Shown: positions 33,052 through 57,929 of the stretch, piece after piece | How positions within the stretch are numbered: position 1 is the stretch's first letter | Layout: every line of letters starts with the position of its first letter | Notes under the pieces: generated by a model | What the model was told of the DNA's origin: nothing | Seen by the model: the letters and a program-made list of their open reading frames with translations, nothing else | Database searches by the model: none | NCBI GenBank assembly: GCA_965369815.1 | Contig: CBDUQS010000001.1 | Span: 4,108 to 68,107, forward strand | DNA: 64,000 nt | Source: an uncultured bacterium | GTDB taxonomy: Bacteria > Patescibacteriota > Gracilibacteria > UM-FILTER-43-11 | Direction: 5' to 3' | Program-made: the position numbers and the translations under genes

Positions 33052-33111
33052 TTACGAAAGTAGCTCCTTAACCACCTTATTTACCAATCCACCATTAGTT
33101 TGGCCTTTTTT
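33052..33111 (-). pseudogene. relic 3' fragment of a GatB/YqeY-domain gene (19 codons + stop)
   Basis: The reverse complement reads aaa aaa ggc caa act aat ggt gga ttg gta aat aag gtg gtt aag gag cta ctt tcg taa, which translates as KKGQTNGGLVNKVVKELLS*. The intact gene at 54838 ends LKGQADGGLVNKVVKELLS*. An in-frame stop lies immediately 5' of the relic. Confidence 0.75.
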
Positions 33112-33120
33112 GTGTTAACC

Positions 33121-33149
33121 TTGACAAATTTTAAAAAATAGCTCAGTAT
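33121..33149 (+). promoter_or_regulatory. candidate promoter (TTGACA-17-CAGTAT) at the head of the pilus/cell-wall block
   Basis: ttgacaaattttaaaaaatagctcagtat shares aaaaaatagct with the promoter at 1913. Confidence 0.45.
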
Positions 33150-33191
33150 AGCAACCTTGTCTTCCCGGACATATCTAATATTCCTTATTTA

Positions 33192-34133
33192 ATGAAGAAA
33201 TTGTCTCTTAATCTTCTGCAAGGTGTCCGAAAAGCCGATACATCGGAAAGCAAGTTGTTTAAAAAAATCATTAGCTTGGTATTAGGCTTTTTACTGGCCA
33301 GTCCCTTTTTGGCGAATTATCAGATTATAAAGAGCGACTCTTTTCATGAGGAAATTTTACCTCAAGAAGACATTAATCTGATTCATGAGAGAAGTGAAAC
33401 AATAATATATGCCGTTCAACCAGGGGATACACTTTCATCGGTTGCCAAAAGTTTTAATCTAAAAAAAGAAAGCCTGATGGTTGAGAATGATTTATGGAAT
33501 CCCAACCGATTACGAGCAGGGATGGAAATTAAAATTCTTCCAGTAGATGGCCTATCTCATATAGTTAAAAAGGGTGAGAATCTAGAGAAAATTGCCAAGA
33601 GATATGAAATAGATAAAGAGAAAATAATTGAGCAAAATAATCTGGAGGGTGAGAGTTTGGCTGTGGGGGTATCTTTGATTATTCCAGAGGCTAGATGGGA
33701 GATTCCAGTTTATACCACTATATCCGCACCCGTTGCGCCGATTGGAAAGTACACAGGTAGTGCAACAGGTCGCTTACTTCGGCCTGCTAAGGGTGAGATT
33801 ACACAGGGCTATCGTCGCGGACATGCAGCTATAGATATTGCTACTCGTGCCAAAGGCCCTATTTATTCTGCTGCAAGTGGTAAGGTGATCAAGGCTCAGA
33901 GCGGATGGAACGGAGGGTATGGAAATATGATCATTATTGATCATGGGAATGGTATGCAAACCCTTTATGGTCATAATGAAAAACTTTATGTCACAGTAGG
34001 TCAACAGGTGGAGCAGGGGCAAACGATTGCGTGGATGGGAAACAGTGGCCGTGTGTATGGTCCAACTGGTATTCACCTACACTTTGAGGTGCGCATTAGG
34101 GGGATAAAATATAACCCAATAAATTTCTTTTAA
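33192..34133 (+). CDS. LysM-domain M23 family metallopeptidase
   Basis: Two LysM repeats (YAVQPGDTLSSVAKSF, HIVKKGENLEKIAKRY). M23 motifs HAAIDIA, IIDHGNGMQTLYGH and GIHLHFEV. Confidence 0.9.
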   Translation: MKKLSLNLLQGVRKADTSESKLFKKIISLVLGFLLASPFLANYQIIKSDSFHEEILPQEDINLIHERSETIIYAVQPGDTLSSVAKSFNLKKESLMVENDLWNPNRLRAGMEIKILPVDGLSHIVKKGENLEKIAKRYEIDKEKIIEQNNLEGESLAVGVSLIIPEARWEIPVYTTISAPVAPIGKYTGSATGRLLRPAKGEITQGYRRGHAAIDIATRAKGPIYSAASGKVIKAQSGWNGGYGNMIIIDHGNGMQTLYGHNEKLYVTVGQQVEQGQTIAWMGNSGRVYGPTGIHLHFEVRIRGIKYNPINFF

Positions 34134-34149
34134 TTTCTTTTATTTCTAG

Positions 34150-36756
34150 ATGAACAAGTTCATTTTTAAAATGAAAAATCAGGGTGAATGGAAGATTATT
34201 TTAATGATTGTCTTTTTTTCATTACTTCTTTTTGGAAATCCAGTTCATGCAGAAACAGTTTATCAGGACGTGGATGTTAAAATGGGGATTGAAATTGGTG
34301 ATGATCTTCTGGATTTTGAAGATGCCAATAAGATAATTGAAAAAGGAAGATTCGTTAAATATCAGATAAGGATTAAAAATTCCGGCAGTCATTCTCATGG
34401 TGATTTGTTGCTTTTGGTTAGCAAACCGGACTATATGGAATATATAAAAGGCTCGACTGTATTGCAAAGCGAAGATTTCTCTTATTCCTCAAACATTCCT
34501 GATATTGGTGATGATAGCCCTCTGGAAGTGGGCTATGAAATTCAGACTCTGACAGCAGGAAAAGAGATTATTATTGAATTGCAATTTCAGGCTATTGTAC
34601 CCGAGGAAGTCAAAGATGAATCACTTTATACCTTTGTATTTGCGAGTCTTTTTGGGCAGTATTCCGCCATACCTGTATTGAGTCAGGCAATTGAAGCAAT
34701 TATTTCAGGTGAGGCAAAGCCAACGGTACAGGTTGATGTTGAAGTTTTGCCATCTCCGGAGAGCCAAATTAGTCCTGGTATGCAAATTACCTATAACTAT
34801 AATCTTCATAATGTTGGTGGAGCTGCAACATCTGATATGACAATCACGAGCTATTTGCCAAACAATACAACCTGTATATCAGGATGCGGAGCTTTCACGC
34901 TTGACCCCCTTGATCCAAATGAAGAGGGTCTGTTTCATGAAATGGTTGTCTTGGTTGATTCAGATTTATCTGGCGTAACAGAAATTGTGAATATTGGTTA
35001 CGATTTAAGCGGTGAGAATTTTGAAATAATTGAATACAGGGAGCCAATCACTAGCGCAACCACTGGTGGAGGCGGTGATGATGGACAAATATTAAACGAG
35101 TTCACATTAATTGTTAATCAGGTTCCAAATGTCATATTAAATTCTGCAGATGGGGTAACTCAAAGGCTGGACGGTGCTGATTTAACAGAAACACAATATT
35201 CATTATTGTATGGCGGAAGAAAACAGCAATATACATACCCTATACTTTCTACGACCGACAAAAGTAGAACACAAAGACCATGTGGGACTTATTCCCATTC
35301 AAATCAATTTGGAGCATATTTTTATGCATACAACAGTAATGGTTACGAAAATTCTGAATCTGTATCTGGCATAGGTTTGTTTAGTACTCCTATTGAATTT
35401 AATGTAAATACGGTTTTACCAGAGACTTCTCCAAAGTTGGAATTCACTGTTAATACTCCAATGTATAGCTTTGGAAGTACATCAGAAGTTAATAAGTATA
35501 TGAAAGAAGGGGTTCAAATTGATATTCCAAGTATATTCACAGAAAGTAGGGCGGTACAGAATGGGGCAATGGGAATAGTTAGCTCCGAGGTTATAGCAAG
35601 TGTTTCGGAGGATCTTTGGCAATATAATTATGCCGGAAGAGACGAATATTTATGTACAAAATGTTATAGCTGCGGAGAGGATTGCACCCGTTGTGTGGAT
35701 TACGATAGGCCTGTGTATGTCTGGCAAAAATCAAGCTTGCCCAATGTCGAATTAAAAGATGATGATACGACCCATATCAGTGTCTATACATCAACTGCAT
35801 GGTTAAAAACACAAGGAGGGCACATCGGTACAAATGGCAATTTTACAAACGAAATTGGTGAATTTAATTCAGTTGATCTGATGTCATATCAAGACATAAA
35901 TAATGAAGAGGATAGTTATGCACGGTCCAATGAATATATAAGAAGCAATCACCTTACCCCGTCTTCTAGCTATACACCGCCAGGAGAATTCAATGCCGAG
36001 TATATGGTTTTTGGAAATACAGGTGTGGGTGATATGAAAACAAGCTGTGGTCAGGCTGGTGAGTCTGATTGTGAAGCATGGTATGTGGAGGGGGTAGAAT
36101 TTCCATTCTTACAAAAGGGGGAGGTTTACGATCGCGAAAACAATCCTCGAAATTATAACAACTCCGAATCTCCAAATGACTTAATCGATAGAGAGAAATT
36201 TGGTGAAGTGAGAACCAATGAGCTTTCCACTAATCTTGTTGGAACCGTTGAATTAGGTGATGATATTGTGTGGAATAACACAGGCACTATTATAATTGGA
36301 GGAGATCAAGATGATGATGTGGTTATCTTTAGCGGGGGTCAGTCCCGTATTTATACAACAGGAGATGTTTACATAAAGGCTGATATTAAATATCAAACAT
36401 CTAGCTCAGCAAATTATAACGACATTACCTCCGTTCGTATTGATGCGAGAAATATATATGTAGATGGAGAAGTTGAAGATCTTGAGGTGATGATACTCGC
36501 ACGGGAAGGATTTTACAGTGGTGTTAGCAAAAAGCAGTTGCGCATACTTGGTGACGTAATTGCAAAAAATGCTTTCTGGCAGCGTGAGCCATTGCTTCAA
36601 TACGATGTGGAAGAGATCAATCAGCCATCAGAATATATTATTGAAGACATGAGAAAATACATTGTACCAGCTCCAGGGGATACAGAATTGCCGGATGATT
36701 ACACTATCTGGAGGCAGGTAAATCCTGCCACGGGCGAGGTTTTAGATTCATATTAA
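34150..36756 (+). CDS. large secreted protein with DUF11-like repeat domains and beta-helix-like C-terminal region (adhesin candidate)
   Basis: Signal peptide. Two segments resemble the conserved repeat domain DUF11 (FVKYQIRIKNSGSHS.., ITYNYNLHNVGGAATSDMTI). Confidence 0.7.
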   Translation: MNKFIFKMKNQGEWKIILMIVFFSLLLFGNPVHAETVYQDVDVKMGIEIGDDLLDFEDANKIIEKGRFVKYQIRIKNSGSHSHGDLLLLVSKPDYMEYIKGSTVLQSEDFSYSSNIPDIGDDSPLEVGYEIQTLTAGKEIIIELQFQAIVPEEVKDESLYTFVFASLFGQYSAIPVLSQAIEAIISGEAKPTVQVDVEVLPSPESQISPGMQITYNYNLHNVGGAATSDMTITSYLPNNTTCISGCGAFTLDPLDPNEEGLFHEMVVLVDSDLSGVTEIVNIGYDLSGENFEIIEYREPITSATTGGGGDDGQILNEFTLIVNQVPNVILNSADGVTQRLDGADLTETQYSLLYGGRKQQYTYPILSTTDKSRTQRPCGTYSHSNQFGAYFYAYNSNGYENSESVSGIGLFSTPIEFNVNTVLPETSPKLEFTVNTPMYSFGSTSEVNKYMKEGVQIDIPSIFTESRAVQNGAMGIVSSEVIASVSEDLWQYNYAGRDEYLCTKCYSCGEDCTRCVDYDRPVYVWQKSSLPNVELKDDDTTHISVYTSTAWLKTQGGHIGTNGNFTNEIGEFNSVDLMSYQDINNEEDSYARSNEYIRSNHLTPSSSYTPPGEFNAEYMVFGNTGVGDMKTSCGQAGESDCEAWYVEGVEFPFLQKGEVYDRENNPRNYNNSESPNDLIDREKFGEVRTNELSTNLVGTVELGDDIVWNNTGTIIIGGDQDDDVVIFSGGQSRIYTTGDVYIKADIKYQTSSSANYNDITSVRIDARNIYVDGEVEDLEVMILAREGFYSGVSKKQLRILGDVIAKNAFWQREPLLQYDVEEINQPSEYIIEDMRKYIVPAPGDTELPDDYTIWRQVNPATGEVLDSY

Positions 36757-36795
36757 TTAACGGTAAATTATTTAGACAAAATAATCACAATATTT

Positions 36796-38556
36796 ATGAC
36801 AAATACATTCAATTATTCAAATAATACTAATAAAAAAGTTTTAGATTATTTGTTAGCCAATGATTTTTTCTCAAAGAAAGATGCTTCTGATCTTCAGAGT
36901 AGGGCAAAGAAAAAAGGGGAATTAGCTTTAAAAGTTTTTTTACATGAAAATCCTGAGCTAATAGAAAAAACGACAAAATTAATATCTCACTTATCAAGTG
37001 TTCCCTATTTTGATCACACATCAGAGGTGTTGGTTAAGAAGCATGAAATTCTAAATCCAGAAAATGCAAAAAAATACGGTGCTTACTTAGTTAGTGATGG
37101 TGGATCAGAGAAGTTGCTTTGTATGGACCCGGAAAATAAAGAGTTCAAAGGTTTAAAAAAGACAAATTTTAAAAGAATCCAGATCGTAATAATGTCTCAA
37201 GTTACCTTTGATTATATTGAGAAAAATTATGAGGAATTGGCAAAAAAAACAGAGGAGAATAGTAAATTAGAGGGAAAGAGTAAGATCGAGATCATAGAGG
37301 CTGATGATGCAGATAGCGCTGATGCAAATAAATATGTATATAACATGCTGAAGGAGTGTGTAGAGAAAGAGGCATCAGATATTCATATTGATCTTGCATT
37401 GGGTGACAAGAGACAAAGAGGATTTAAGTTAAGATATCGTGTTGATGGCAAGTGTTTTGATGAAAGTTTTCATAATGACATTATGCTTTACAGGGGGATT
37501 GTGAATAAATTAAAACTCGATGCAGGATTAAAAATTGACGAGAGAAGATTGCCTCAGGATGGTCGTATATCTTTTGAGTTAAATGAAAAGGTATACAACT
37601 TCCGACTCTCCTTTATGCCAAGTACAATCCGCAATGCCCAGGAGGAAAAAATTGTTTTGAGACAAATGGCAGATCTGAATAAATGCAATCTTTACGATCT
37701 CGGTATTCATCCCTTTTGCTTAGAGTTGCTAAAAAAGGCAATAACTTATCCTCATGGTTTCATTTGTGTTACGGGTCCTACGGGGTCAGGTAAAACAACC
37801 ACTCTTTATGCGTTATTGCAGGAGATAGACAGGGCAAGCGCGAATGTAATGACACTTGAAGATCCAATCGAAGCCGAAATCCCATTGGTAAATCAGTCAC
37901 AAATGTTTCACAGGATTGGCTACGACTTTGCCTCAGGATTGCGTGTAATTTTACGTCAGGATCCGGATATTATTATGGTAGGTGAAATGCGTGATGAGGA
38001 AACCGCCCTAAAGGCTTTTGAGGCTGCAAATACAGGTCATTTGGTTTTTTCTACACTTCATACCAACACAGCCGCTTCATCAATTACCCGCTTGCTTCAA
38101 ATGCAAGTTCCTCATTATTTCATCAGCTCTTCATTAAAGTTTATAGTCGCCCAAAGGCTCGTGCGTAGGATATGTACCGAATGTTGCAAAAAACATCCCG
38201 ATGAAAAAAATGTATTAGCAGCAATCGGATCATCATTTAAAGACGCATCAAAAGAAGTTAAAGACATATACAATGAAGCAAGAAAGAATAATAAACTATT
38301 TGCACCGTATCCAAATGGGGGTAAGTGTGGACGCTGTGATGGCGCTGGATACAAGGGTAGAGTTGGAATAATGGAGATCATGCAAGTGGATGATGAAATC
38401 AGACACGTAGTAAATTTTGATAGCGGAAATGAAGACAAGATACAGGAAATAGCAGAAAAGAATGGAATGCTGACCATTCAGCAATATGGTTATTTACAAG
38501 TACTTGAAGGGAAGACTACTTTTGAGGAAGTTAATAATGCCGTCCTTTCGGTTTAG
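36796..38556 (+). CDS. pilB: type IV pilus assembly ATPase (GspE/PilB family)
   Basis: Walker A VTGPTGSGKTTTLYA, Walker B DPDIIMVGEMRDEETA, His box GHLVFSTLHTN and a C-terminal tetracysteine (CTECC...CGRCDGAG). Confidence 0.93.
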   Translation: MTNTFNYSNNTNKKVLDYLLANDFFSKKDASDLQSRAKKKGELALKVFLHENPELIEKTTKLISHLSSVPYFDHTSEVLVKKHEILNPENAKKYGAYLVSDGGSEKLLCMDPENKEFKGLKKTNFKRIQIVIMSQVTFDYIEKNYEELAKKTEENSKLEGKSKIEIIEADDADSADANKYVYNMLKECVEKEASDIHIDLALGDKRQRGFKLRYRVDGKCFDESFHNDIMLYRGIVNKLKLDAGLKIDERRLPQDGRISFELNEKVYNFRLSFMPSTIRNAQEEKIVLRQMADLNKCNLYDLGIHPFCLELLKKAITYPHGFICVTGPTGSGKTTTLYALLQEIDRASANVMTLEDPIEAEIPLVNQSQMFHRIGYDFASGLRVILRQDPDIIMVGEMRDEETALKAFEAANTGHLVFSTLHTNTAASSITRLLQMQVPHYFISSSLKFIVAQRLVRRICTECCKKHPDEKNVLAAIGSSFKDASKEVKDIYNEARKNNKLFAPYPNGGKCGRCDGAGYKGRVGIMEIMQVDDEIRHVVNFDSGNEDKIQEIAEKNGMLTIQQYGYLQVLEGKTTFEEVNNAVLSV

Positions 38557-38623
38557 CCTGAAATTTGTTAAAATAATAAACACTCAAATACAAACAAAAT
38601 TTGTAATCTGTTAAATCTTATAT

Positions 38624-41353
38624 ATGAGATTGATTAGAAAATTATTATTTGTATTTGTTGCTGTTTCGACTTTATTAATAAGTCAGAATTTTGCAAATGC
38701 TCAGGCAGGGCATATAGATGATGAAGAGATCGTTATCGATGGTCAGACCTACAAAAGAACGATTACAGAGTTCAAGAAAGTAGAGCCATCAAATGGAAAT
38801 GCTTATAGTAACTCAGGCGACACTTACAATAATGATTTAAATATAATACCTTTTGTAGATATACCAGGCTACGAGGATCTTTACGATTATATTAAAAACG
38901 GAACATTGCCCAGTTTAGATGGGCAAGCTATTACTCCAGGCATAGTGTGTGATGATCCCTCGGGATCAAATTGCTATAGCATGGAAACCTCTGGCACTGC
39001 CATTGGCGAGCTTGTTTATGGTGAATATTTCGATCGATCAGATCTATGGCAGAAGGTGGAATATGATGGGAAAGTACATTATGTACCGGTGGATGAATTG
39101 AGTAATTCAACTACGGCTATTGATAGTACAGCTGATAAGCCACCGGTAATTACAGATACAGGTGGCGAAATTGACAGACCAACAACCTTCCTTGAGAGTG
39201 GATTAAATACTATTAGTTTTCTTAATAATCTTCCAACAATTTCTGTGAATATGGGGATAGATTCATTAACTGATTTAAAGCGTTATGCAGATAAGAATAA
39301 CTGGAAAGAAAGGGTATATGAAAAATTATATGGTAATGATGAGAAAACCATCACATTTGCAGATGGAATGGCACCTTATGTGGATAGGGCTGAAGAATGG
39401 ATTTCTCCCAAAATAAAAGAAAATAAACAAGTTCTTACACCTTTGTACCCGGCATATTTTGTGTGGAAAGGTTTTGATTTTGTTGCGACAGTGACTGAAG
39501 GGTGGGTTTCTCATTTTACTAAGCCAACGGTAAAGAATTTTTATGAAAAGTATAATGAGATCAATGATTACGTTGAAAATAATGAAAATCTTTCCGATAC
39601 TCTCAAGAAAAACCATTTTCGACAAATGGGTATGGCTAAGTCATTTGTTAATACGGTAACTGGTTTTTATAGCCTAACAAGAAATCTAGATGAGACATTG
39701 GCAGGCTTGTATAGTGTAGCGAGGCATCCAGTTCAATTCGGACAGGGGATGAAAGAGGTTGTAGGTAATTATTATGACAATTTTTGTTCAGAGGACTCAA
39801 CCGATAGAGAGTGCTATACAGCACAGGGGGGAGTCTTAGGTGAAGCTGTACAATTTGCTCTAGGAGCCGGAGAGCTTAAGACTTTTGCTAGGGGAACTAA
39901 AATAGAAAAACATATATCAAATTTAGGCAATAAGGCTAAATATACAGATGATGCATTAAAAAACTCTGATGAGGCTATAGCTGCATTTAAAGGTCTGGAG
40001 GGTGATATGAAAAGAGGATATGAAATCCTTATTGAAAAAAAAGTAGTAACAGATAAAGAGTTAGCAGATTATATTTTTGGTTGGCCAGAAGATAAAGCTG
40101 AAAGATTATTAAATAGAGTAAACAGCTTTGGATCTAATATGGGGGAATTTGATGGAAGAGAGTTTAAATTCTTATCGCAAAATGGAAGATTTAAGAAATA
40201 CACAGAAGCTTTTGAGAAAGATGGACGGTATAACTTAATTACTTTTGATGTCGATGATCAGGGCAGAAAATTGATAGTCTCAAATGAAGGAAGGATGTCA
40301 GTTGCCAAAAACGATAAAGGGGGAATTTCAATTGACTATAAGGGCTATGAAGATCCTATGAGAGGAGAGTACGATTATATATTGAAAGATGGAAAAATAC
40401 ACATAGGGGATGGCCATCCTGAGTTAGCAAAAAAAGGATATACAGCAGAAGATGTGGATTTAACAGTTGATTACGCAGGCACCATAGAGATAACAGAAAA
40501 TGGGCACGTAAAATACTGGAGTGATTGGTCGGGACACTTTAAGCCTTCACCAAATGATATAAAAGGACAGGAGGCTGTAAGAAAGCAATTTAAAAAACAA
40601 TTTGATGTCGATTTACCATCTTTTGACAAGAGATTGAGCAATTCTGAAGTATTAAGCTTAAGCACTAATAAGGGTGGTTTATTAGGGGCGATAGAAGACA
40701 TGTTTAAAAGCAAAAAAGGGGGGTATTACGGAGGAGGTATTGGTGATGATATTGCAGAAAGTTTTACAAGGGCGGGTAATCCAAAGGAATATGAGATCGC
40801 CTTAAAAGAAGTTAATGCAGGAGGTTTTCAGGTGGGTAATACAAGGGTGATTAAGGAGTCTGATTTTTACGATGGTGTTCCAAGAGGCGCTAAGATTTAT
40901 GAAACGCAATTTCCAAAAGGAGGCCTTGCCATCACTGCAGTTGACGATGGGAAAAGGACTCTTTATGTGTTAGATATCAAGGCAGTTGAAGATGTTAATT
41001 TTAAGGCTACGTATGCATTATTGGATCAATATTATTTCCAAGGAGGTTCCAATGAGCGACTAATGAGAGTTGTATTAGATAATGTTGTTGAAAAAAATAC
41101 ATTAAAAACTTTGAATGAAGTCGGAGATTTCAGTAAGTATTATAATAATCCCAAGCTTTATAACAAAGAGATTAAAGAAGCATTTAAGGGCACTTTATTC
41201 GGAAGTGCGATGAAGAGGATTGAGGCAATAACGGGAAAAACGGTAAAATGGGATGACGTAGAAATAAAAAGAGTTCGTATTTCTGATGGCAGATTCGGTA
41301 ACCCAAAAGGGGAAATTACAAATCTTAATATCGAGGTTCCCTTTAGTGATTAA
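38624..41353 (+). CDS. 909-aa secreted protein, unknown function
   Basis: Signal peptide (LLFVFVAVSTLLISQNFANA). No motif I can name. Located between pilB and the minor pilins. Confidence 0.7.
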   Translation: MRLIRKLLFVFVAVSTLLISQNFANAQAGHIDDEEIVIDGQTYKRTITEFKKVEPSNGNAYSNSGDTYNNDLNIIPFVDIPGYEDLYDYIKNGTLPSLDGQAITPGIVCDDPSGSNCYSMETSGTAIGELVYGEYFDRSDLWQKVEYDGKVHYVPVDELSNSTTAIDSTADKPPVITDTGGEIDRPTTFLESGLNTISFLNNLPTISVNMGIDSLTDLKRYADKNNWKERVYEKLYGNDEKTITFADGMAPYVDRAEEWISPKIKENKQVLTPLYPAYFVWKGFDFVATVTEGWVSHFTKPTVKNFYEKYNEINDYVENNENLSDTLKKNHFRQMGMAKSFVNTVTGFYSLTRNLDETLAGLYSVARHPVQFGQGMKEVVGNYYDNFCSEDSTDRECYTAQGGVLGEAVQFALGAGELKTFARGTKIEKHISNLGNKAKYTDDALKNSDEAIAAFKGLEGDMKRGYEILIEKKVVTDKELADYIFGWPEDKAERLLNRVNSFGSNMGEFDGREFKFLSQNGRFKKYTEAFEKDGRYNLITFDVDDQGRKLIVSNEGRMSVAKNDKGGISIDYKGYEDPMRGEYDYILKDGKIHIGDGHPELAKKGYTAEDVDLTVDYAGTIEITENGHVKYWSDWSGHFKPSPNDIKGQEAVRKQFKKQFDVDLPSFDKRLSNSEVLSLSTNKGGLLGAIEDMFKSKKGGYYGGGIGDDIAESFTRAGNPKEYEIALKEVNAGGFQVGNTRVIKESDFYDGVPRGAKIYETQFPKGGLAITAVDDGKRTLYVLDIKAVEDVNFKATYALLDQYYFQGGSNERLMRVVLDNVVEKNTLKTLNEVGDFSKYYNNPKLYNKEIKEAFKGTLFGSAMKRIEAITGKTVKWDDVEIKRVRISDGRFGNPKGEITNLNIEVPFSD

Positions 41354-41412
41354 TAATTGAATACCCAGGGAGACTAAAGATAGTCCAATCGTGCTTTAGT
41401 CAGCATCGTACC

Positions 41413-41446
41413 AAAAAAACCTTATTTTTACGGAAATAGGGTTTTT
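41413..41446 (+). terminator. rho-independent terminator
   Basis: accttattt-ttacgg-aaatagggt gives a 9-bp stem, followed by ttttt. Confidence 0.7.
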
Positions 41447-41469
41447 GTAATTATTATAATGAAATATCC

Positions 41470-41498
41470 TTGACAAGTTGTAAATAAAGTACTAGTAT
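41470..41498 (+). promoter_or_regulatory. sigma70-type promoter (TTGACA-17-TAGTAT) for the minor pilin operon
   Basis: ttgaca at 41470-41475 and tagtat at 41493-41498. Confidence 0.55.
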
Positions 41499-41544
41499 AA
41501 ATACCTTATTTATGCGAACGCCCCCTCCCGCATAATAATCCGCT

Positions 41545-42713: not shown

Positions 42714-42723
42714 ATTATTAATA

Positions 42724-46389: not shown

Positions 46390-46425
46390 ACTCATTAAGA
46401 AAATTATTCAATAACTTTTATCAAT

Positions 46426-47228: not shown

Positions 47229-47867
47229 ATGATAGAGTTACTCGTGGTAATGACATTAATGGCGTTTGTTCTGGCAATGGCAGTACCCTTCGTAGAATCA
47301 ATTCGTTCTGACATTGCAATGCGAAAGACTATCAGACAGGTAAAAACAGATTTAGTGACTAACATTGGTTATTCTTTGGCCGGAAAATCGATAGCAGCAC
47401 TGGTACAAGGAGACTTAATGAACCCAAGCCTCATACCAAGCCATTACGCTCTTTATTTAAAAAAAGATGACGAATCCGGAAATCCAACACCGTACAGATA
47501 TGTAGAGTTGAGGTCTGAAATTGAAAGTGGCGGCTCCCAAAGGATTAAGGTGCTTTATCAGATAGAAAAAGAAATGCCTTCGCCAGCAGTTTACATAAGT
47601 GATATTAGATTAAGAAAATCCCAGTCTGATTCAGGTAGTTCAGTTGATTCAGCATATATGTTTTTTACCCCCCCTTTTGGCAAGATATCTTTTGTCAGCG
47701 GATATGATTCTTTGATTGAAAATAATACAGCATCTTTTGATCCCATCGTAGTCCTTGGGGGAGCAAGAGATATTCAGAAGATTGAAATTGATTTTAAATA
47801 TAAAGATGATGAAGATTCGATTACAACTCTTTCTTTTGGGGCGGATAAGATTATTAATATATATTAA
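47229..47867 (+). CDS. pilin-like protein whose prepilin leader lacks a canonical start codon
   Basis: The ATG ORF begins MIELLVVMTLMAF. The in-frame upstream codons read IKRTNLNSKG-FT before it, back to a taa at 47178. The only start-like codon there is ATT at 47193. Confidence 0.7.
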   Translation: MIELLVVMTLMAFVLAMAVPFVESIRSDIAMRKTIRQVKTDLVTNIGYSLAGKSIAALVQGDLMNPSLIPSHYALYLKKDDESGNPTPYRYVELRSEIESGGSQRIKVLYQIEKEMPSPAVYISDIRLRKSQSDSGSSVDSAYMFFTPPFGKISFVSGYDSLIENNTASFDPIVVLGGARDIQKIEIDFKYKDDEDSITTLSFGADKIINIY

Positions 47868-47869
47868 AT

Positions 47870-48841
47870 ATGTACGCAATTCTCATCTCCATAGCATTGG
47901 CAATCTACAGTTTGATTTTAATAGATTTCACCCTTCTTTTTCAGGAAATATCAGTGAATGCAGATGTAGTTACTTCAACGCAGGCACTTTACGCAGCAGA
48001 AGGAGCGCTGGAAAATACATTTAGCATTGTGGGAACATCAGACTTAGCCAATATAAATATTAAATTTATTAACGAAAAAGAGATCAGTGTAAATAATCAG
48101 AGTGATGAATATTTGCTTTATAACGAAGGTGCAAATTCATTCTATATAAACAGACAGCTAAGCCTCGATGAATCAGATATGAGCGTTGCAGACGGGTTTA
48201 ATCCGGATAATAGGGTGGTCACAAGTGGAGCTTATCTTTCGGACGGTCAGACGATGGATCAGAAATCTTATTACGGACTAGAGCCTCAAAAATCCAGATC
48301 CTTTGTGCTAAGAGAGGTGGATATGGAAGATTTATTTAGTGAAATAGGATTTGAATATAATCAGGGAACAGAAAATTCAGAGTTGCTTTTTGAAGTATTT
48401 ATTTCCCCAAGAGAGGGGTCTGATATTGTTTTTTCAGATTTTGAAACACTGAAAAATTCTCCGGAAGCTTCACAGATGAAACGCGTTGTTATCAACACAA
48501 AAGATATCTATTCAACGGGCTTGGGTGAGGATTTAACTGTGCATTCAAATGTGATTAGTGGAAATTACAAAAATGAAATTACCATATCGGGATTTAGGTC
48601 TTGGGATTTTAATTACATTTTACGTTTCCAAACTCTAAACAACGAGCCAATTCACTTTAAGTTGTATGCAAAAAATAACGGACAATATGTAATGCTTCCC
48701 AATATGATGCAGACCATTGATATTATCGGTGCTACATCAACCGGTTTATATCAGAGGATTAAGCTGCAAAGACAAGCAGAAGAGGGCTTGATGCCAGGAC
48801 TTAATTTTACACATTTTAGTGATGGGGATGTTCATAAATAG
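47870..48841 (+). CDS. PilX-like N-terminal domain protein (pilus-associated)
   Basis: N-terminal hydrophobic helix followed by TSTQALYAAEGALE, resembling the PilX_N motif. Confidence 0.65.
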   Translation: MYAILISIALAIYSLILIDFTLLFQEISVNADVVTSTQALYAAEGALENTFSIVGTSDLANINIKFINEKEISVNNQSDEYLLYNEGANSFYINRQLSLDESDMSVADGFNPDNRVVTSGAYLSDGQTMDQKSYYGLEPQKSRSFVLREVDMEDLFSEIGFEYNQGTENSELLFEVFISPREGSDIVFSDFETLKNSPEASQMKRVVINTKDIYSTGLGEDLTVHSNVISGNYKNEITISGFRSWDFNYILRFQTLNNEPIHFKLYAKNNGQYVMLPNMMQTIDIIGATSTGLYQRIKLQRQAEEGLMPGLNFTHFSDGDVHK

Positions 48842-48904
48842 CGGCTAGTTACTAGTAGCTAGTTTAGCAAAAAATTACCCATTGCCCATCACTCACTATC
48901 CACT

Positions 48905-50821
48905 ATGAAACCTATAAGTAAAAAAACTATCGGATTCGTAATACTATTCGCACTCACTGCGATAGTGGTTGCAAAAGCAAGTGTTCCTTACAGTATTTCA
49001 GTAAAATCAAAAAATACAGAAGAATATCCACGGGTGATATTAGAAATGAGCATAAGTGGAGAGCAGAACAATTACTACGCCAGAGATTTTAAGGTTATTG
49101 AAAATGAAGAGAGGAACATTGGCCCCATGGTTTTATTGAGCCCCTCTATCCTTAAAGATTCAGTTGAATTAAGGGTATTATTAGATAATAGCGGGAATAC
49201 AAAGAGATATGAAGAAATAATCAAATCCAATATAAAGGCTCTTGTTGAATATATAGATTCACAAGTTTCAAGCTTTAGGTTGATCATAAATACTATTGGA
49301 GGGGGGGAGACGTCAATTTCAATAAATAGTGTAGATACACTATATCAGGTAGATGGAATAAGCTTTTCAGATACTCCGACTATTTCGAAATACGATTTTT
49401 CTAAAATAGATAATTTAGTAGCAGGGTCCCCTGTGAGTTCAGAGAAAATAGCGCTAATAATAAACGGAGGAAGATTTCATGTCGATAATGAGCGAGCTAG
49501 CCTTAGAAGTGCTACCTCCGCTCTTGCAAGTAATGGTTATAAAACATTTGTGTACGGACATCCGACAAGTTCTCTGTATCCACTTAAGCCTGACAACATT
49601 CATGCCGAAGATATAAGTTTATTCCGCGACGTTCAGGGTGGGTTTATGGGCACATTTAATGCGGATTTATCGATTATATACGATCTCATTAAAAAAACTT
49701 ATTCTGGAAATTCCGTAATGCATTATTATACAAACAACCCCCCTGAGTCAGGCGGTATTTCTGAAATTTACATAGATGACTACAAAGTAGAGACAATATC
49801 ATTGCCTGCACCAGGATTGGAAAGGCCAACAATAACATCTGGATTATCTTCAGGTATTGATAGTCAGGGGCTATTATCTATTGATCTTCGCATCAAACCA
49901 GAATCAAAAATGATTAACGGTGTCATGATGAAATTTCATAACGGAGAAGGGCCAGCTTTACAGGGGCTTATTAGGGATAGAGGTAATGAGGGGGCGGACA
50001 ATCTGTATGCAGGGAAGATAAATATTCCAGAAAGCATTGTTAATTCTTTTTATGACGATGAATATACAGGTAAATATATCAGATATTTTATAACTGCCCA
50101 CACCCCGTATGCAAAAATCACTACAGAAGATTCTCCAGCTTCCATTCCAATACTTTTATATGACGAAGGGATCACTTTTTATTCTCAGAGTGTTAATAAT
50201 GGAAATCAGATTATTTGGAATTGGGATAAGATAGGGGCAAAGAAATTTGAAGTTTGGAAAGGAAATACAAAAATTCGTTCTGCTGATTCTGAAAAGAAAA
50301 TAATACTAGATACAGATGGGTGTAATAGATATCCGATAATCAAAGTAAGAGCATCTAATGTGTCGAATCCAGGCTCCTATGATTGGGGATATTTTTCAAA
50401 GCCTATGGAAATTTTTGTAGGTCAAGATAGCGTGATTACAGAGTGGGAAGCAATCGATATTATGATGAATTGTATAGATTTAGATAAAAGAGAGGTGTCA
50501 TCCCTAAATTCTCTAATTAATAATGATCCTGAATATTCTTCGGATTCTAATTTAACGACAGAGAGAATGTTGCATTATTTAACAGGCATTGTGCAAGGTG
50601 ATGTGCGTGATGAGATAGTAGGTCAAAAATACTCACTGCTTTATTATATTATGAATTTTATAAGCAATTCAGAATACGATCTTTATAAAGACGGAGAGGT
50701 GAAAAAATCAGTACTATATAAATTAATTACCAATATAAATCAAATAAACGACTTATCCGAAAGGTTTGACCTTGCGTTGCATGAGTTGTCGATAAGATTG
50801 CTTGGAAGTTCTGCTATTTAA
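48905..50821 (+). CDS. 638-aa secreted protein, possible vWA-like N-terminal domain (PilY1-analogue candidate)
   Basis: Signal peptide. VLLDNSGNTKRYEEIIKSNIKALVEYI resembles a degenerate MIDAS/vWA start. Confidence 0.6.
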   Translation: MKPISKKTIGFVILFALTAIVVAKASVPYSISVKSKNTEEYPRVILEMSISGEQNNYYARDFKVIENEERNIGPMVLLSPSILKDSVELRVLLDNSGNTKRYEEIIKSNIKALVEYIDSQVSSFRLIINTIGGGETSISINSVDTLYQVDGISFSDTPTISKYDFSKIDNLVAGSPVSSEKIALIINGGRFHVDNERASLRSATSALASNGYKTFVYGHPTSSLYPLKPDNIHAEDISLFRDVQGGFMGTFNADLSIIYDLIKKTYSGNSVMHYYTNNPPESGGISEIYIDDYKVETISLPAPGLERPTITSGLSSGIDSQGLLSIDLRIKPESKMINGVMMKFHNGEGPALQGLIRDRGNEGADNLYAGKINIPESIVNSFYDDEYTGKYIRYFITAHTPYAKITTEDSPASIPILLYDEGITFYSQSVNNGNQIIWNWDKIGAKKFEVWKGNTKIRSADSEKKIILDTDGCNRYPIIKVRASNVSNPGSYDWGYFSKPMEIFVGQDSVITEWEAIDIMMNCIDLDKREVSSLNSLINNDPEYSSDSNLTTERMLHYLTGIVQGDVRDEIVGQKYSLLYYIMNFISNSEYDLYKDGEVKKSVLYKLITNINQINDLSERFDLALHELSIRLLGSSAI

Positions 50822-50829
50822 TAAATACA

Positions 50830-53800
50830 GTGAATCGATTTTTAACCCAAATCCATAGGATCAGTAAACTTTTTCTAGCCATCCCAGCGTTTGCTCTTTT
50901 GGTATTCATTCTTTTTTCCTTTTCCACCTCTACCCAAGCCTCTTTTTACGATGTCCCCTCAGATTCCATCTTTGCCCCTCATATCAACGAACTATTCACA
51001 CACAATCTCATCACCGGATACACCGACCTTAATGGAAATCCTACAGGGAAATATGGCCCTAATAACACCATTAAACGATCAGAATTCGCAAAGATCTCCG
51101 CCATCATAAAACTTGCTGAACTCTACGGTAATGAAGAAGGTTGGCAGGATATGAGTGAGGATATGCTCATCAAAACCCTCGAAAGCAAAATGAAATACTA
51201 CCATCAGTGTAGTAACCCTATTTCAAGCTGTTCTACTACTTACGGAGCAGATCTAAGAGGTGTATGTAACGTATGCTCCATTACAGGAGGAGTTCCTTTC
51301 CCTGATGTTGGGGAGGATCAGATTGACTGTCAAAGTAAAGGGATCTGCAATTGGTATTTGAAATATGTTTACTATTTGGCCAGAAAAGGAACAGTAAAAG
51401 GTTACCAGAATTATAATCCTCCAAAATACATACCAACCAATGATATTCTCCGTATTCATGCTCTTAAGATGATCATCGTAGATAACGGCAACATCTCACC
51501 CGAATCCGATGCGAGATACTCTAGGCTGAGTAGCCTAGCTGATTCAAAAAAATCCAACACACCCAAATGTATATATGGAGCAGAAAGCTACATCAGAGAT
51601 AGGAATGGAGGAGATACAGAAGATTCCAACAAGCTCCTTAAATACGCAGTACTCGCAGACCGCTTAGATCTTTTTGGCAATGACTGTCAGGTGATCACCG
51701 ATGCGGGGTACGACAAAAGCAACCCTAAAGAAGTAGCTCATTTCCTTCAGCAGGAAGTACTCAGAAAAGAAATACCCCGTTATCTTTCTATCACCACTTC
51801 TTACACTCCCATAGAACCCGACCCAGTTACAGATACTACTATTAATACCAAAGAAGAAAATCTTTACACGGAAACTATCGCCGATGAACCTTATGAAATC
51901 CCCATCTTCATCGATCCTACACCAGATGGCAATGAGAACACTGGCATTGTATTCACAGAAACATCCACCACAGAGACTATTCTAAAAGACAACACCAGAA
52001 TCATCCTGAACAAAGAAACAGGGCAGTACACCGTACAGGACATCGCTACTGGCACCGTTCTTGAAACCGGAACCGCAGAAGAAGGAACCGTTGTTCAAGA
52101 AATTGCAGAAACCATTAATACCGTTGTATTGGAAGAGAAGGTGGAAGAACAGCGGGAGATGGAACAGGGTGATGTACAGGTGGAAAGAAAAATGCCCCGT
52201 ATTCCTGAGGCGCATAGGAAGCAAATTGAGGATAATCCACAAGAAGAGATAGAGGAGGTGGTTATCGCAGATACCTCAAAAGCATCCATAATAACGACAA
52301 AATCAATTCAGATCTGTACAGGCTCTGGTTGCGAAACAATCCCCGCAGGGAAAGTCTTAGATGCCTTAGCGGTAACAAAAAGCAGGAGTGGAAACTATTA
52401 TCAGAACGTCAATTACGATGGGGTTCTATATCAGGTTAATTGCGATGATGTACAAAATGTAGGTTGTGTTGATGCTGGATGGAGGCAGGATACGGCTACC
52501 GAAACAGTCGTCGTTGATACTGAGCCTGGTGATAATCCTTTATTCGATATAATTTCACCCTCATATTACGGAGAGGGGGTTGATAGTTTTGTAAATTGGG
52601 TCACCGAGCTAAACAATAGAATGACTCAAATTAAACAAGCTCTTGAGAGTCACTATGACAAAGGAAATACGGTAGAGAAAACCAAGAATTGGGGGCTTGT
52701 AGGTAAGGATAGGGATAATTGGGAGTATAATTATGTTGTGAGGTGGGCTGAGGCGAAAAAGGTGGAGGAAGCTTTGGAGGCCCTTAATGTGAAAAGATTA
52801 TTTAAGACTAGTATCGCAAAAGTAAATATTCGAATGGAAACAAAAGCAAAATCTCATTTGCTAAAGACAATATCTGCTGAAAAAACTGGAATAACAGTAA
52901 TCGGAAAGGCAGTACGTGGTGAATATGTAGATGCTTATAAAACTGATAGGTGGTATATGGTGAAATGTGATGAGTGTAAAGACAGAAGTGGAAAAGTTGT
53001 TGCTGAAGGTTATGTTTTAACCACACTGTTGCACGCGGTTCAATTGGGAGATAAAGATACTAACTACGTTAAGATTGATGATAAATTTTCTCATTCTGGT
53101 TTTAATAGAGGGAAAAGCAAGGTTACTGGCATTGTTCTTCATGCAACTTTAGGTAATGGTTCTGCGGCTAATGATAGAAATTCAATTAAGAAAAGTGGAA
53201 GGTTGAATGGTGTTGGAGCCCATTATTATGTTGATAGAGATGGCAATATTGCACAAGCTTTACCAGATTATAAAAAAATTCACCATGCTGGATATAATGG
53301 CCCTTGGCCAAATGTAAGAAAAAATGGAAGCAATTTTACTATCGGAATTGAAATCTCGAATTATGGACCAATAAAGATAGAGGCAAAGAATAATGAGACA
53401 ATTAAAAAGAATGCGTATAACAGAAATACAAATGTTGATACCCTTAATGTAAAGAGTGTCTATAGCAAAGTATGGAAAGTATGGAGCTATTTTCAGACTT
53501 CAAAAAGCAAGGGGATGAGTGGAAATGTTACCTGGGCAGGCTTCGGAACAAATGCGAATGAAAAGGTCGAAACTTGGCAAACGTATACAGAAAAGCAATT
53601 AAAAAGTGTAGTATTGCTATTGGATTATCTTGAAGAAAGATATGGTATACCCTCAAATAACTTCTTTGAATACAGCAATCCAAATACTTATGATGGGTTA
53701 AGCGATGCAGAGATTAAGAAAAATAGTCATTATTATTACCCGAGAAATGCAGAGGAAAGAAAGAAATATAATGATTTATTGTATGATTGGAACGGTATTT

Positions 53801-53895
53801 ATCAGCATCATAATGTAACTGGCAAATTTGATGCTGGACCTGGTTTAAATATCGATGAATTGACCAGGGTGAGAAAAGAATTATTTTCCGAATAG
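50830..53895 (+). CDS. SLH-domain / SH3-like / N-acetylmuramoyl-L-alanine amidase (amidase_2) cell-wall protein
   Basis: GTG start. N-terminal SLH (FYDVPSDSIFAPHINELFTHNLITGYTD..RSEFAKI). C-terminal VTGIVLHATLGNGSA...GAHYYVDRDGNIAQ...HHAGY...TIGIEISN. Confidence 0.82.
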   Translation: MNRFLTQIHRISKLFLAIPAFALLVFILFSFSTSTQASFYDVPSDSIFAPHINELFTHNLITGYTDLNGNPTGKYGPNNTIKRSEFAKISAIIKLAELYGNEEGWQDMSEDMLIKTLESKMKYYHQCSNPISSCSTTYGADLRGVCNVCSITGGVPFPDVGEDQIDCQSKGICNWYLKYVYYLARKGTVKGYQNYNPPKYIPTNDILRIHALKMIIVDNGNISPESDARYSRLSSLADSKKSNTPKCIYGAESYIRDRNGGDTEDSNKLLKYAVLADRLDLFGNDCQVITDAGYDKSNPKEVAHFLQQEVLRKEIPRYLSITTSYTPIEPDPVTDTTINTKEENLYTETIADEPYEIPIFIDPTPDGNENTGIVFTETSTTETILKDNTRIILNKETGQYTVQDIATGTVLETGTAEEGTVVQEIAETINTVVLEEKVEEQREMEQGDVQVERKMPRIPEAHRKQIEDNPQEEIEEVVIADTSKASIITTKSIQICTGSGCETIPAGKVLDALAVTKSRSGNYYQNVNYDGVLYQVNCDDVQNVGCVDAGWRQDTATETVVVDTEPGDNPLFDIISPSYYGEGVDSFVNWVTELNNRMTQIKQALESHYDKGNTVEKTKNWGLVGKDRDNWEYNYVVRWAEAKKVEEALEALNVKRLFKTSIAKVNIRMETKAKSHLLKTISAEKTGITVIGKAVRGEYVDAYKTDRWYMVKCDECKDRSGKVVAEGYVLTTLLHAVQLGDKDTNYVKIDDKFSHSGFNRGKSKVTGIVLHATLGNGSAANDRNSIKKSGRLNGVGAHYYVDRDGNIAQALPDYKKIHHAGYNGPWPNVRKNGSNFTIGIEISNYGPIKIEAKNNETIKKNAYNRNTNVDTLNVKSVYSKVWKVWSYFQTSKSKGMSGNVTWAGFGTNANEKVETWQTYTEKQLKSVVLLLDYLEERYGIPSNNFFEYSNPNTYDGLSDAEIKKNSHYYYPRNAEERKKYNDLLYDWNGIYQHHNVTGKFDAGPGLNIDELTRVRKELFSE

Positions 53896-53919
53896 TTTTA
53901 TAAAATCTATATAATCAAT

Positions 53920-54786
53920 ATGCGAACATTGTTAATTATTACATTGTTTTTAATCTCTTCATTTAATGTATCTGCAGATATAGTAAATAGTGAAAATTCA
54001 AATTTTAAGATAAAAGAAACTGACAGTTATGGCTTAGCCTTAGAATATGCAGGGGAAGATATTTTAATTCAGGAGTATACAGGGCTAGATAGGATTGAGG
54101 CAGTTTCCTATATGGATTATATTATTTATAACGGCGCCGCTGGCATTGGACTTTTTATTTATGATGTCGCCAGCAAACAGTCATATTTACTGAATAGACC
54201 AGGCAGTTATAATTCAGCAATTTTTTATAATAAATTTGATATAGTTAACGATAAGCTATTTATCGACGTTGGGATAGAGGCTGCATCTATGCCAAAGATA
54301 TGCATATACGACTTACAGAAAATGAGTAAAGTATTGGATGGTATAGATGATATAGCCAATTTGCTGCAGGAAGCTGAAGATTCGCAATACTCAAGCCTGA
54401 AGAAATTCACGGAAAATGAAGACATATCATATTGCACTATTGATGATGGCAAATATTATTATGAAGCAGAATTTACCAGTGACGAAAAGTTAAATTATAT
54501 TCTTTGTGAGGACAGTATCTGTGAAGAGGAGGATTTTGATGGGGGTAAGGTATATGAATCTGATTGGAATGGGGAGAATATCGAATTAATCGAGGTCTTC
54601 GATGAAAATAATGAGTATATTAAAAGTAATGAACAATTGGGCAATGATATTGTTAGGAAGAATGATGACAATAAGGCATCAAAAATATTTGACCCCCTAT
54701 ATATTTCTATCTTGCCAGTGATGTTTATATTTGGAGTAGTTGGTTTTACCTTAAGCAAGAAGACAAGGCGTAAAAATAAGAAGTGA
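53920..54786 (+). CDS. hypothetical protein with signal peptide and C-terminal TM anchor
   Basis: MRTLLIITLFLISSFNVSA..., and a C-terminus ISILPVMFIFGVVGFTLSKKTRRKNKK. Confidence 0.6.
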   Translation: MRTLLIITLFLISSFNVSADIVNSENSNFKIKETDSYGLALEYAGEDILIQEYTGLDRIEAVSYMDYIIYNGAAGIGLFIYDVASKQSYLLNRPGSYNSAIFYNKFDIVNDKLFIDVGIEAASMPKICIYDLQKMSKVLDGIDDIANLLQEAEDSQYSSLKKFTENEDISYCTIDDGKYYYEAEFTSDEKLNYILCEDSICEEEDFDGGKVYESDWNGENIELIEVFDENNEYIKSNEQLGNDIVRKNDDNKASKIFDPLYISILPVMFIFGVVGFTLSKKTRRKNKK

Positions 54787-54837
54787 GATTGCTAACAATA
54801 TGGAAGATTTAGAGACCAAGAGGTGGGGGTATAAGAA

Positions 54838-55284
54838 CTAGGAAAGCAACTCCTTCACCACCTTATTCACCAAACCTCCATCGGCTTGGCCTTTTAGTTT
54901 ATCCATCACAGCACCCATCACTTTCCCAAAGTCTTGTGGCCCTTGTGGATTCACTTGGTCAATCACTTCCTGAACAGCTTTTTTAACATCTTCCTCACTC
55001 ATCTGTTCTGGCATATAGACTTCTAGAAGTTTGATTTCATCCAGTTCTTTTTGAGCTGCTTCAGTATTACCACCTTTCGTAAAACCTTCGACAGAATCTT
55101 TGCGTTGTTTAATTCCTTTTTTGATCAAGTCGGTCACTATTTCATCGGTAGCCACCTTATCCCCACCGCTCACTTCAAACTTCATAATATCTGCCTTGAG
55201 CATTCGTAAAACACTTAATTTAAGCGCCTCTTGAGCTTTCATAGCAGCTGTCATATCGGCAATGATTTGTTCTTTTAATGTCAT
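54838..55284 (-). CDS. GatB/YqeY-domain protein
   Basis: 148 aa. LKEQIIADMTAAMKAQEALKLSVLRMLKA is typical of the YqeY family. Confidence 0.88.
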   Translation of the reverse strand: MTLKEQIIADMTAAMKAQEALKLSVLRMLKADIMKFEVSGGDKVATDEIVTDLIKKGIKQRKDSVEGFTKGGNTEAAQKELDEIKLLEVYMPEQMSEEDVKKAVQEVIDQVNPQGPQDFGKVMGAVMDKLKGQADGGLVNKVVKELLS

Positions 55285-57927: not shown

Positions 57928-57929
57928 GC

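Follow-up and report, generated by a model that had tools for sequence, protein, structure and literature searches.

The stretch of DNA analysed here (the window, 64,000 nucleotides) is part of contig CBDUQS010000001.1 from the genome assembly GCA_965369815.1 of an uncultured bacterium (Patescibacteriota; Gracilibacteria). In this window, yqeY and carB, the gene for the large subunit of carbamoyl-phosphate synthase, are separated by a block of genes for a type IV pilus, cell-wall enzymes and surface proteins, and the block is bracketed by two copies of the yqeY 3′ end. One copy belongs to the intact gene while the other is a stub close to carB. The 16 open reading frames (ORFs) enclosed by the copies all have plus-strand orientation, and both yqeY copies are on the minus strand (coordinates are collected in Table 1). 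By its YqeY homologs, the organism is assigned to Candidatus Peregrinibacteria within the candidate phyla radiation (CPR). That the copies have the same orientation and enclose a co-oriented plus-strand block had already been pointed out in a first-pass annotation of the region, and this description is correct.

The intact yqeY codes for a protein which covers the complete YqeY family profile (PF09424, positions 1-143 of 143, E=3.4e-44) and which ends with ...KLKGQADGGLVNKVVKELLS*. The stub consists of codons 130-148 and a stop codon. Its codons (33111-33052, minus strand) are AAA AAA GGC CAA ACT AAT GGT GGA TTG GTA AAT AAG GTG GTT AAG GAG CTA CTT TCG TAA, and direct reading confirms that they specify KKGQTNGGLVNKVVKELLS* as first described. 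Between the stub and the live copy, 16 of the 18 residues are identical, which is the number originally claimed. The nucleotide identity, originally given as about 46 of 57, is 45/57 by manual count and 47/57 (82%) in the register 33053-33109 versus 54839-54895. The two repeat copies are 21,786 bp apart, their longest exact run is 11 nt, and the 57-nt repeat is the longest direct repeat within 32.8-55.4 kb. The match is detected by tblastn within the window (E=4e-5) and also when a YqeY profile hidden Markov model (HMM) is compared to the six frames of 32900-33900 (E=2e-6, HMM positions 129-146 only). It is far beyond chance.

At the stub, the similarity to yqeY breaks off abruptly at codon 130/131, and the relic is truncated by an in-frame stop, as had been noted before (TAA at 33117-33115). 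The first-pass annotation had also considered that the stub might belong to a longer decayed paralog with an extent different from that of the block boundary. This is not seen. A six-frame profile-HMM search at maximum sensitivity finds the 18-residue stub alone, so that a longer paralog below the 5′ region of the first block gene (LysM-M23) was rejected, and the extent of the stub coincides with the block boundary. Two weak tblastn matches (33337-33369 and 33425-33448, E=46) were also rejected as paralog remnants, as their spacing is not collinear. The gatB gene was discarded as a source of the stub, the GatB C-terminus (20602-20772) being just 34% identical.

The stop codon of the stub is located 59 bp from that of carB, across a strong hairpin, and this is the position which is expected of an ancestral yqeY terminus. 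The hairpin corresponds to an inverted repeat (I7, 32998-33020 / 33029-33051) that is 87% complementary and folds with a free energy (dG) of -19.2 kcal/mol (z = -4.1). Folding of the region downstream of the live yqeY stop gives no hairpin (dG -2.1, z = 0.3). It is likely that the hairpin in the spacer is the bidirectional terminator of an ancestral convergent yqeY/carB pair. In a related genome where the site between the two genes is empty (L008), it is filled by an analogous perfect hairpin (dG -30.2, z = -8.7). Consensus promoter and terminator scans at both junctions gave nothing informative, and a consensus promoter scan of the block leader returned no full sigma-70 match. In principle, the two 57-nt repeats could permit deletion of the whole pilus block, which would restore an empty site of the type yqeY-hairpin-carB.

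Relatives were collected by a scan with a YqeY alignment, using one genome per species, and the proteins from the window were mapped onto the resulting 77 loci. In about 18 loci from Peregrinibacteria, the order NDK-M16-MraW-129aa-Alr-GDH-YqeY> <carB-Sua5-AspRS-...-TGT is kept, and carB is syntenic and 75-88% identical at the amino acid level in about 16 relatives. The comparison of synteny had been proposed as a check for an empty site with carB directly adjacent to yqeY, and the two genes are indeed convergent neighbours in the about 18 relatives. Three of the sites are essentially empty: the stop codons overlap in L015, and they are separated by only 45 bp, the perfect hairpin, in L008 and by 97 bp in L096. 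The gap amounts to 268-558 bp in four relatives (L013, L007, L004, and L006), to 864 bp in L003, to about 1-2.5 kb in eight further species (L018 to L014), and to 21.8 kb in the window analysed here. Gap cargo from the relatives includes a ParE toxin, a CopG/Arc-like protein, an NYN domain protein, a fusion of HTH_17 with an SDH-protease, aminotransferases, orphan ORFs and weak matches to an IS200-like Y1_Tnp.

Given the conserved gene order and the variable gap, the yqeY/carB junction must be considered a hot spot. Relative to the ancestral state, the plus-strand block with its 16 genes has been inserted into this variable site. The junction is similar to chromosomal hot spots between core genes in that it holds small accessory genes which vary from relative to relative. 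Where the gap contains cargo (L001, L003, L010, L014, and L016-L021; e.g. L017:2636-4543 and L001:10445-12147), it always lies neatly between both stop codons. The window alone has a joint that cuts into a yqeY copy, of which a stub remains. In relatives, neither 79 yqeY loci nor 9 loci with LysM-M23 or pilus genes were found to contain a second yqeY 3′ fragment, and the about 14 relatives with other cargo at the yqeY/carB site have neither a yqeY stub nor an integrase.

The closest relative (L003) is represented by a contig of 2.5 kb on which the ends of GDH and carB are 97% identical to the window at the amino acid level and about 90% at the nucleotide level. It does not contain the block. 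In its place there are 864 unrelated bp with a single unrelated ORF of 264 codons. We rejected the idea that this ORF and the gene for the 288-aa protein at the right end of the block represent common resident cargo of the hot spot, as there is no similarity. On the carB side, the homology between L003 and the window extends precisely to the stop codon (32992), and on the yqeY side it continues for about 8 nt past the stop (to 54830). The last 40 nt of carB have about 80% identity to L003, compared to about 90% for the rest of the gene. The 3′ end of the live yqeY is about 95% identical to that of L003.

Within yqeY, the divergence from L003 is highly uneven. When the gene (54838-55284) is compared to that of L003 (245-691), the proportion of synonymous differences (pS) has three levels: it is 0.34 in codons 1-50, rises to 0.76 in codons 51-115, and drops to 0.13 in codons 116-148. 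The central part, which also has a nonsynonymous divergence (dN) of 0.15, is as distant from L003 as from any outgroup. For carB, 276 sliding windows of 33 codons gave pS values of 0.22-0.63 with a median of 0.36. As the yqeY values of 0.76 and 0.13 are outside of this range, homologous recombination with diverged DNA must have acted inside yqeY, and the gene is a three-part recombination mosaic relative to L003. No source lineage for codons 51-115 was found among the loci compared.

The stub is a different allele of yqeY and not a decayed copy of the live one. In the 17 codons that were compared (Gly132-Ser148), there are 8 synonymous differences at 12.7 sites and 2 nonsynonymous differences at 38.3 sites (Nei-Gojobori), corresponding to a pS of 0.63 and a proportion of nonsynonymous differences (pN) of 0.05 (Fisher p=7e-5). 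When 10 random substitutions were simulated in the 17 codons, two or fewer amino acid changes occurred with P ~3e-4, irrespective of whether mutation was uniform or AT-biased. The stub and the live copy are therefore distinct alleles under selection, and the stub must formerly have been under selection. The first-pass annotation had taken the mostly synonymous differences to suggest that the relic is a once-functional homolog rather than a recent local duplicate, and this is borne out by the 8 versus 2 substitutions.

This result also bears on the possibility that the resident 3′ end was duplicated locally, by a staggered break or in the manner of a target site, during an intragenomic move of the organism's own pilus cluster, with subsequent neutral decay. 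It would be in line with the stub being nearest to the 3′ ends of L003 (41/51 nt) and of the window itself (40/51 nt), all other relatives having at most 37/51, and 10 differences in 54 nt are about the neutral expectation since the split from L003 (synonymous divergence, dS, of carB 0.57). However, the substitution pattern is strongly non-neutral, also under AT-biased mutation, so that neutral decay of a local duplicate was rejected as the origin of the stub. In addition, a target duplication of 57 nt far exceeds any transposition footprint known to us. We consider a local duplication very unlikely. The proximity to L003 and to the copy in the window indicates instead that the stub comes from within or near the same clade.

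The two residue changes in the stub, A134T and D135N, affect positions that are invariant across 21 family members, which fits a short period of decay after the stub copy had been displaced. With 2-3 changes at 38 sites, the nonsynonymous load of the stub is about 0.05-0.08 per site, compared to the carB dS of 0.57 between the window and L003. We would thus date the displacement after the split from L003. This is a rough age which agrees with the absence of the block from L003.

The genes of the block have their closest counterparts in pilus clusters from related genomes. Homologs of the 868-aa protein (h868) are rare, with only 10 found in 5.8 billion clusters, and they always occur within collinear pilus clusters. 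In L085, the identity at the amino acid level is 85% for the C-terminus of LysM-M23, 79% for h868, 85% for PilB, and 80-84% for the pilins. In L086, it is 60% for h868, 84% for PilB, 84-86% for the pilins, 84% for the SLH protein, 78% for h263, 88% for h85, and 88% for PilC. A more distant version of the cluster, preceded by TatD and RadA, occurs in L088. Overall, the homologs of the collinear core in these three loci have 44-88% identity, which resembles the identities of backbone genes from comparably related genomes. The block genes are the ordinary pilus cluster of the family and not foreign-looking cargo. They also resemble the type IV pilus clusters of CPR bacteria or Patescibacteria (e.g. 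Peribacteria genomes, PMC4736985; surveys of CPR protein families, PMC6744442), which have PilB, PilC, several N-methyl prepilins, and SLH and cell-wall enzymes. The difference is restricted to the location, as the sampled relatives do not have the cluster at the yqeY/carB site.

On their left side, the pilus clusters of the relatives have other neighbours and no yqeY fragment. That the block occurs elsewhere without such a fragment had been named in advance as an observation that would contradict an integrated element, and this is what we find. LysM-M23 homologs mostly occur among genes for division and the cell wall, in the context FtsQ(POTRA)-peptidase S11-LysM_M23-...-DHH-MurC-DivIC (e.g. 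L080, L082, L089, and L090). In the window as well as in L085, the gene heads the pilus cluster and precedes h868. For a 65%-identical homolog of h868, only gene calls are available, and these place a minus-strand gene upstream. A metagenome scan with PilC returned only five loci, and all of these were too short or too distant for the block ends to be covered.

Three independent metagenome contigs start not more than about 300 bp upstream of their h868 homolog (L085:1-300, L086:1-260, and L087:1-260). It points to variation among strains at the left edge of the cluster, or to a repeat there which interrupts assembly.

The composition of the block had been proposed for comparison with its flanks. 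The block is somewhat distinct, with a GC content at third codon positions (GC3) of about 0.31 versus about 0.38 in the flanks, and with tetranucleotide correlations of 0.98 inside the block and 0.905-0.96 from flank to flank, compared to 0.82-0.905 for block versus flank. However, the large genes with WG and TPR repeats in the left part of the window (12.8-19.3 kb) have a GC3 similar to that of the block, so that the distinction may in part be an effect of gene class.

Mobility genes were searched for with Pfam, using block ORFs of at least 85 aa and the rest of the window, and with NCBIfam and PHROGs, using the unannotated block proteins. In none of these searches was an integrase, a transposase, an excisionase or a phage structural family matched in the block or in the window. 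The first reading had not recognised an integrase either, and we can extend this to recombinase domains anywhere in the window. The block is densely coding and its largest non-coding gaps are about 190 bp, so that there is no room for a decayed recombinase. No tRNA genes were found. PilB and h868 do not have relatives in IMG/VR, and neither the block nor a yqeY repeat occurs at the yqeY/carB site of any relative. The block is thus not recognisable as a mobile island.

The first-pass annotation had interpreted the layout as integration of an element into the 3′ end of a gene. The insertion as such is confirmed by the comparison to the conserved neighbourhood, but not its nature as a discrete integrative island, as there is neither an integrase nor an identical att core. 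In its full form, this explanation assumes an attP resembling the final 57 nt of yqeY, a recombinase of the tyrosine or serine type that has since been lost or that acts in trans, and repeats that represent attL and attR. Direct repeats from a gene 3′ end indeed bracket the whole insertion, there are empty sites in relatives, yqeY is kept intact, and the composition of the block is distinct. That elements integrate at 3′ ends of protein-coding genes is also well known, e.g. for SGI1 at trmE and for the dusA islands (PMC8409611), with which the locus shares the insertion in the last codons, the look-alike 3′ end, the bracketing direct repeats and the empty sites. Unlike these islands, it contains neither an integrase nor an excisionase, lacks genes for mobilisation or replication as well as an identical core, has a core-type cargo, and does not recur at this site in relatives. 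An old event could have blurred a core; the repeat copies are now 82% identical, with a longest exact run of 11 nt. However, the cargo is the ordinary pilus cluster of the family, which in relatives is found in other contexts without yqeY fragments, and relatives with cargo at the site have neither an integrase nor the repeat. We consider a site-specific integrative island unlikely.

We hold with moderate confidence that a yqeY 3′ end was displaced when DNA of a related lineage recombined with the locus, with yqeY as the anchor and independently of an integrase. The interval between the stop codons of yqeY and carB is a hot spot, with accessory DNA that differs between lineages. After the split from the closest sampled relative, a segment of 21.8 kb, extending from the LysM-M23 gene to that of the 288-aa surface protein, would have entered this interval by recombination with related-lineage DNA and without a self-encoded integrase. 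One joint would have been formed via homology in yqeY, and the other would correspond to the abrupt break in a yqeY copy at codon 130/131. This would have produced the intact yqeY which adjoins the block on its right and, on its left, the stub of 19 codons from a different allele, which is still joined to the ancestral stop-hairpin-carB terminus. Formally, such an event would be classified as a 3′-end (C-terminal) displacement.

The pattern of a displaced 3′ end has been attributed to homology-facilitated illegitimate recombination in the effector arrays of type VI secretion systems (T6SS) and in Rhs loci (PMC5361080). As in the Rhs loci and the T6SS effector-immunity arrays of Vibrio cholerae, the conserved body of a gene serves as homology anchor and the incoming DNA carries a new 3′ end together with cargo. 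In both cases, the old 3′ end has been pushed downstream as an orphan of the same orientation that has no start codon, there is no recombinase, and the anchor is a mosaic. There are also differences. In the window, a housekeeping-type gene and not a polymorphic toxin is affected, and the 3′ ends encode nearly the same peptide so that nothing functional has been swapped. The cargo is a 21.8-kb pilus cluster instead of an effector-immunity module, and there is a single displacement instead of an orphan array. Within the paper on T6SS and Rhs loci, de Vries & Wackernagel 2002 and Prudhomme et al. 2002 are reportedly the references on homology-facilitated illegitimate recombination. Three features of a 3′-end displacement are observed in the window: an intact gene followed by cargo and by an abrupt orphan of the same orientation, different alleles that have been under selection, and recombination tracts in the anchor gene. 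The locus is a further example of a known recombination scar and as such is fairly ordinary. It is special for its occurrence in a CPR genome, for the pilus cluster, and for the well-preserved record of the states before and after the event.

As to the enzymatic route, the donor, and the identity of the resident 3′ end, which we infer from the arrangement, three routes may be envisaged. (a) A linear fragment could have been taken up by homology-facilitated illegitimate recombination, where a homologous crossover took place in yqeY while codon 131 of the resident gene became the illegitimate joint, so that the resident 3′ end would stay attached to the hairpin and to carB. This route fits the position of the stub, the absence of a recombinase and the location of a tract boundary close to codon 116. 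It needs a donor that had the block beside a yqeY whose 3′ end resembled that of L003. (b) A single crossover of the Campbell type could have involved a circular intermediate with about 57 nt of the yqeY 3′ end, for which either host recombination or an integrase could have been responsible. With a resident live 3′ end, the stub would be the incoming copy and the crossover would have occurred at its extreme 3′ edge. That the live 3′ end is resident would be most simply suggested by its 95% identity to L003. (c) An already rearranged region could have been imported by a double crossover in carB and in yqeY/GDH.

Route (c) is close to a separate explanation, according to which stub and block were inherited together, or were imported whole by double homologous recombination in the carB and yqeY/GDH flanks. 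The stub would then be an old passenger, and the displacement would have happened earlier in the source lineage. That homology to L003 ends exactly at both stop codons is expected of a cassette exchange between conserved arms. The recombination tracts in yqeY and the reduced identity over the last 40 nt of carB point in the same direction. However, the arrangement occurs in no sampled relative, and the stub, with just 2 residue changes and an open frame, has not undergone long decay. Moreover, the original event is moved elsewhere without being explained. We find this older origin doubtful.

Several points weigh against displacement by recombination anchored in yqeY. L003 does not have the block, and yet its 3′ end matches the live one at about 95% identity, so that the donor must have been L003-like if this end was imported. 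If the live end is resident, the stub came at the far end of the incoming DNA, which requires a circular or pre-rearranged donor. Homologous recombination on about 57-100 nt with about 80% identity would be inefficient. A donor arrangement, with the pilus block next to yqeY, was found in none of the relatives, and the contigs with related pilus clusters do not extend as far as the block boundaries. Finally, the compositional difference of the block could reflect the gene class, as it codes for surface proteins.

The contig belongs to a metagenome-assembled genome (MAG), and several of the related pilus contigs break near the left end of the cluster, which calls for consideration of an assembly chimera. 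Neither junction has a repeat that would mislead an assembler, as the shared 57 nt are 82% identical with exact runs of at most 11 nt. The stub ends at a unique junction, and the structure is coherent, with the intact gene and the hairpin being kept. A chimera is very unlikely.

CPR bacteria are thought to use type IV pili for DNA uptake and host attachment. One may thus speculate that the block is a self-targeting, integrase-free cassette. It would have a portable yqeY 3′ homology arm, would insert at the yqeY/carB junction of relatives via uptake and host recombination, and might leave again through the 57-nt repeats. As the cargo is type IV pilus machinery, a competence or attachment locus would spread by the very process which it enables. 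We give this idea very little credence.

A dependence on type IV pili and on the uptake of DNA is assumed for CPR bacteria, but to our knowledge direct evidence for recombination-driven gene flux in these organisms is sparse. The locus provides a clean and datable footprint of a large functional gene cluster moving in an uncultivated CPR bacterium, with the ancestral state kept in relatives, the displaced gene end still readable, and evidence for homologous recombination in the anchor gene. Such scars could be counted across MAGs and would then give a measure of gene flux. The yqeY/carB junction has been identified as a hot spot for accessory genes in this Peregrinibacteria family. For annotation, the lesson is that a duplicated gene 3′ end which brackets a block is insufficient to call a mobile island.

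Table 1. Features of the yqeY/carB region. Positions are those of the window; the basis of the assignment and remarks are given in the last column.
Feature	Position	Strand	Basis and remarks
carB, carbamoyl-phosphate synthase large subunit (left flank)	29690-32992	plus	Pfam CPSase_L_D2 and related
AT-rich hairpin in the 59-bp spacer between carB stop and stub stop	32996-33053		inverted repeat I7, folding
yqeY 3′-end stub	33052-33111	minus	codons 130-148 and stop
Left junction	33112-33117	minus	CAC, preceded by in-frame TAA (33117-33115), directly upstream of the stub
Block leader, 80 bp	33112-33191	plus	TTGACA at 33121-33126, upstream of LysM-M23
LysM + peptidase M23 cell-wall hydrolase, first block gene	33192-34133	plus	Pfam
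Type IV pilus cluster core	34150-47040	plus	Pfam T2SSE, T2SSF, N_methyl, SLH
868-aa protein (h868)	start of 34150-47040 core	plus	precedes PilB
PilB ATPase	36796-38556	plus	Pfam T2SSE, E=4.6e-105
909-aa protein	38624-41353	plus	after PilB
Prepilins	41545-42027, 42027-42713, 46426-47040	plus	Pfam N_methyl
SLH protein	42724-43944	plus	Pfam SLH
263-aa and 85-aa proteins (h263, h85)	between SLH protein and PilC	plus	
PilC	45100-46359	plus	Pfam T2SSF, E=6e-22
Distal block part	47229-54786	plus	Pfam, NCBIfam, PHROGs; 212-, 323-, and 638-aa proteins first
SLH + Amidase_2 protein	50830-53895	plus	
288-aa protein, last block gene	53920-54786	plus	signal peptide and C-terminal anchor
Right junction, 51-bp spacer from 288-aa gene stop to live yqeY stop	54787-54837		without hairpin
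Live yqeY 3′ end, second copy of the 57-nt direct repeat	54838-54897	minus	reads LKGQADGGLVNKVVKELLS*
Intact yqeY, 148 aa	54838-55284	minus	Pfam YqeY PF09424
GDH, alanine racemase (Alr), 129-aa protein, MraW/RsmH (right flank)	55296-59251	minus	Pfam; same order in ~18 relatives

Of the three prepilins, two exceed the Pfam gathering score for N_methyl, and the one with 228 aa reaches 19.2 bits with the cutoff being 21.2. PilD, PilM/N/O and PilT were not matched by Pfam or NCBIfam among the block proteins; they may be encoded elsewhere or be too diverged. A pattern scan of JGI metagenomes returned no homolog of the 288-aa protein.

It was considered that LysM-M23 might have been cut by the junction. 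This was rejected, as the N-terminal membrane anchor aligns with that of relatives and the N-terminal length varies in the family. The protein does not have a conserved linker of about 35 residues (TEDGFLLKPALNS...) which is found in 7 of 7 aligned homologs.

The slot of the 909-aa protein is the most variable one of the pilus cluster. Its counterpart in L086 (L086:4773-8267) has 1164 aa and a pre-toxin PT-TG domain, and it resembles the 909-aa protein only at the N-terminal and C-terminal ends (45-49%). The pilus cluster from L088 contains a gene of the Imm44 immunity family (L088:12197-12628). Together, PT-TG and Imm44 hint at a polymorphic toxin/immunity module inside these CPR pilus clusters.

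Genes of the PF05635 family ("23S rRNA intervening sequence protein") with very low GC content occur as isolated inserts, one of them in the window (5025-5405, GC 0.26) and one in L086 (L086:12057-12422). The latter is located within the pilus cluster, between the homolog of h85 and PilC, a position where the window has none.

The left flank of the block codes for TGT, an RF-1-domain protein, a GGDEF protein, AspRS, Sua5, and CarB. The GGDEF diguanylate cyclase (25173-26270), located between the genes for the RF-1-domain protein and AspRS, is absent from this interval in L001, L007, L008, and L015, and is thus another lineage-specific insertion in an otherwise conserved synteny.

A second variable surface-protein locus is found beside the conserved M16 and NDK genes. 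There, the window codes for an SLH-domain protein of 486 aa (59715-61175) which has a GC content of 0.53 and a GC3 of 0.57, compared to a window average of about 0.40. SLH proteins at the same position in relatives match it in the C-terminal SLH part alone (about 30%).

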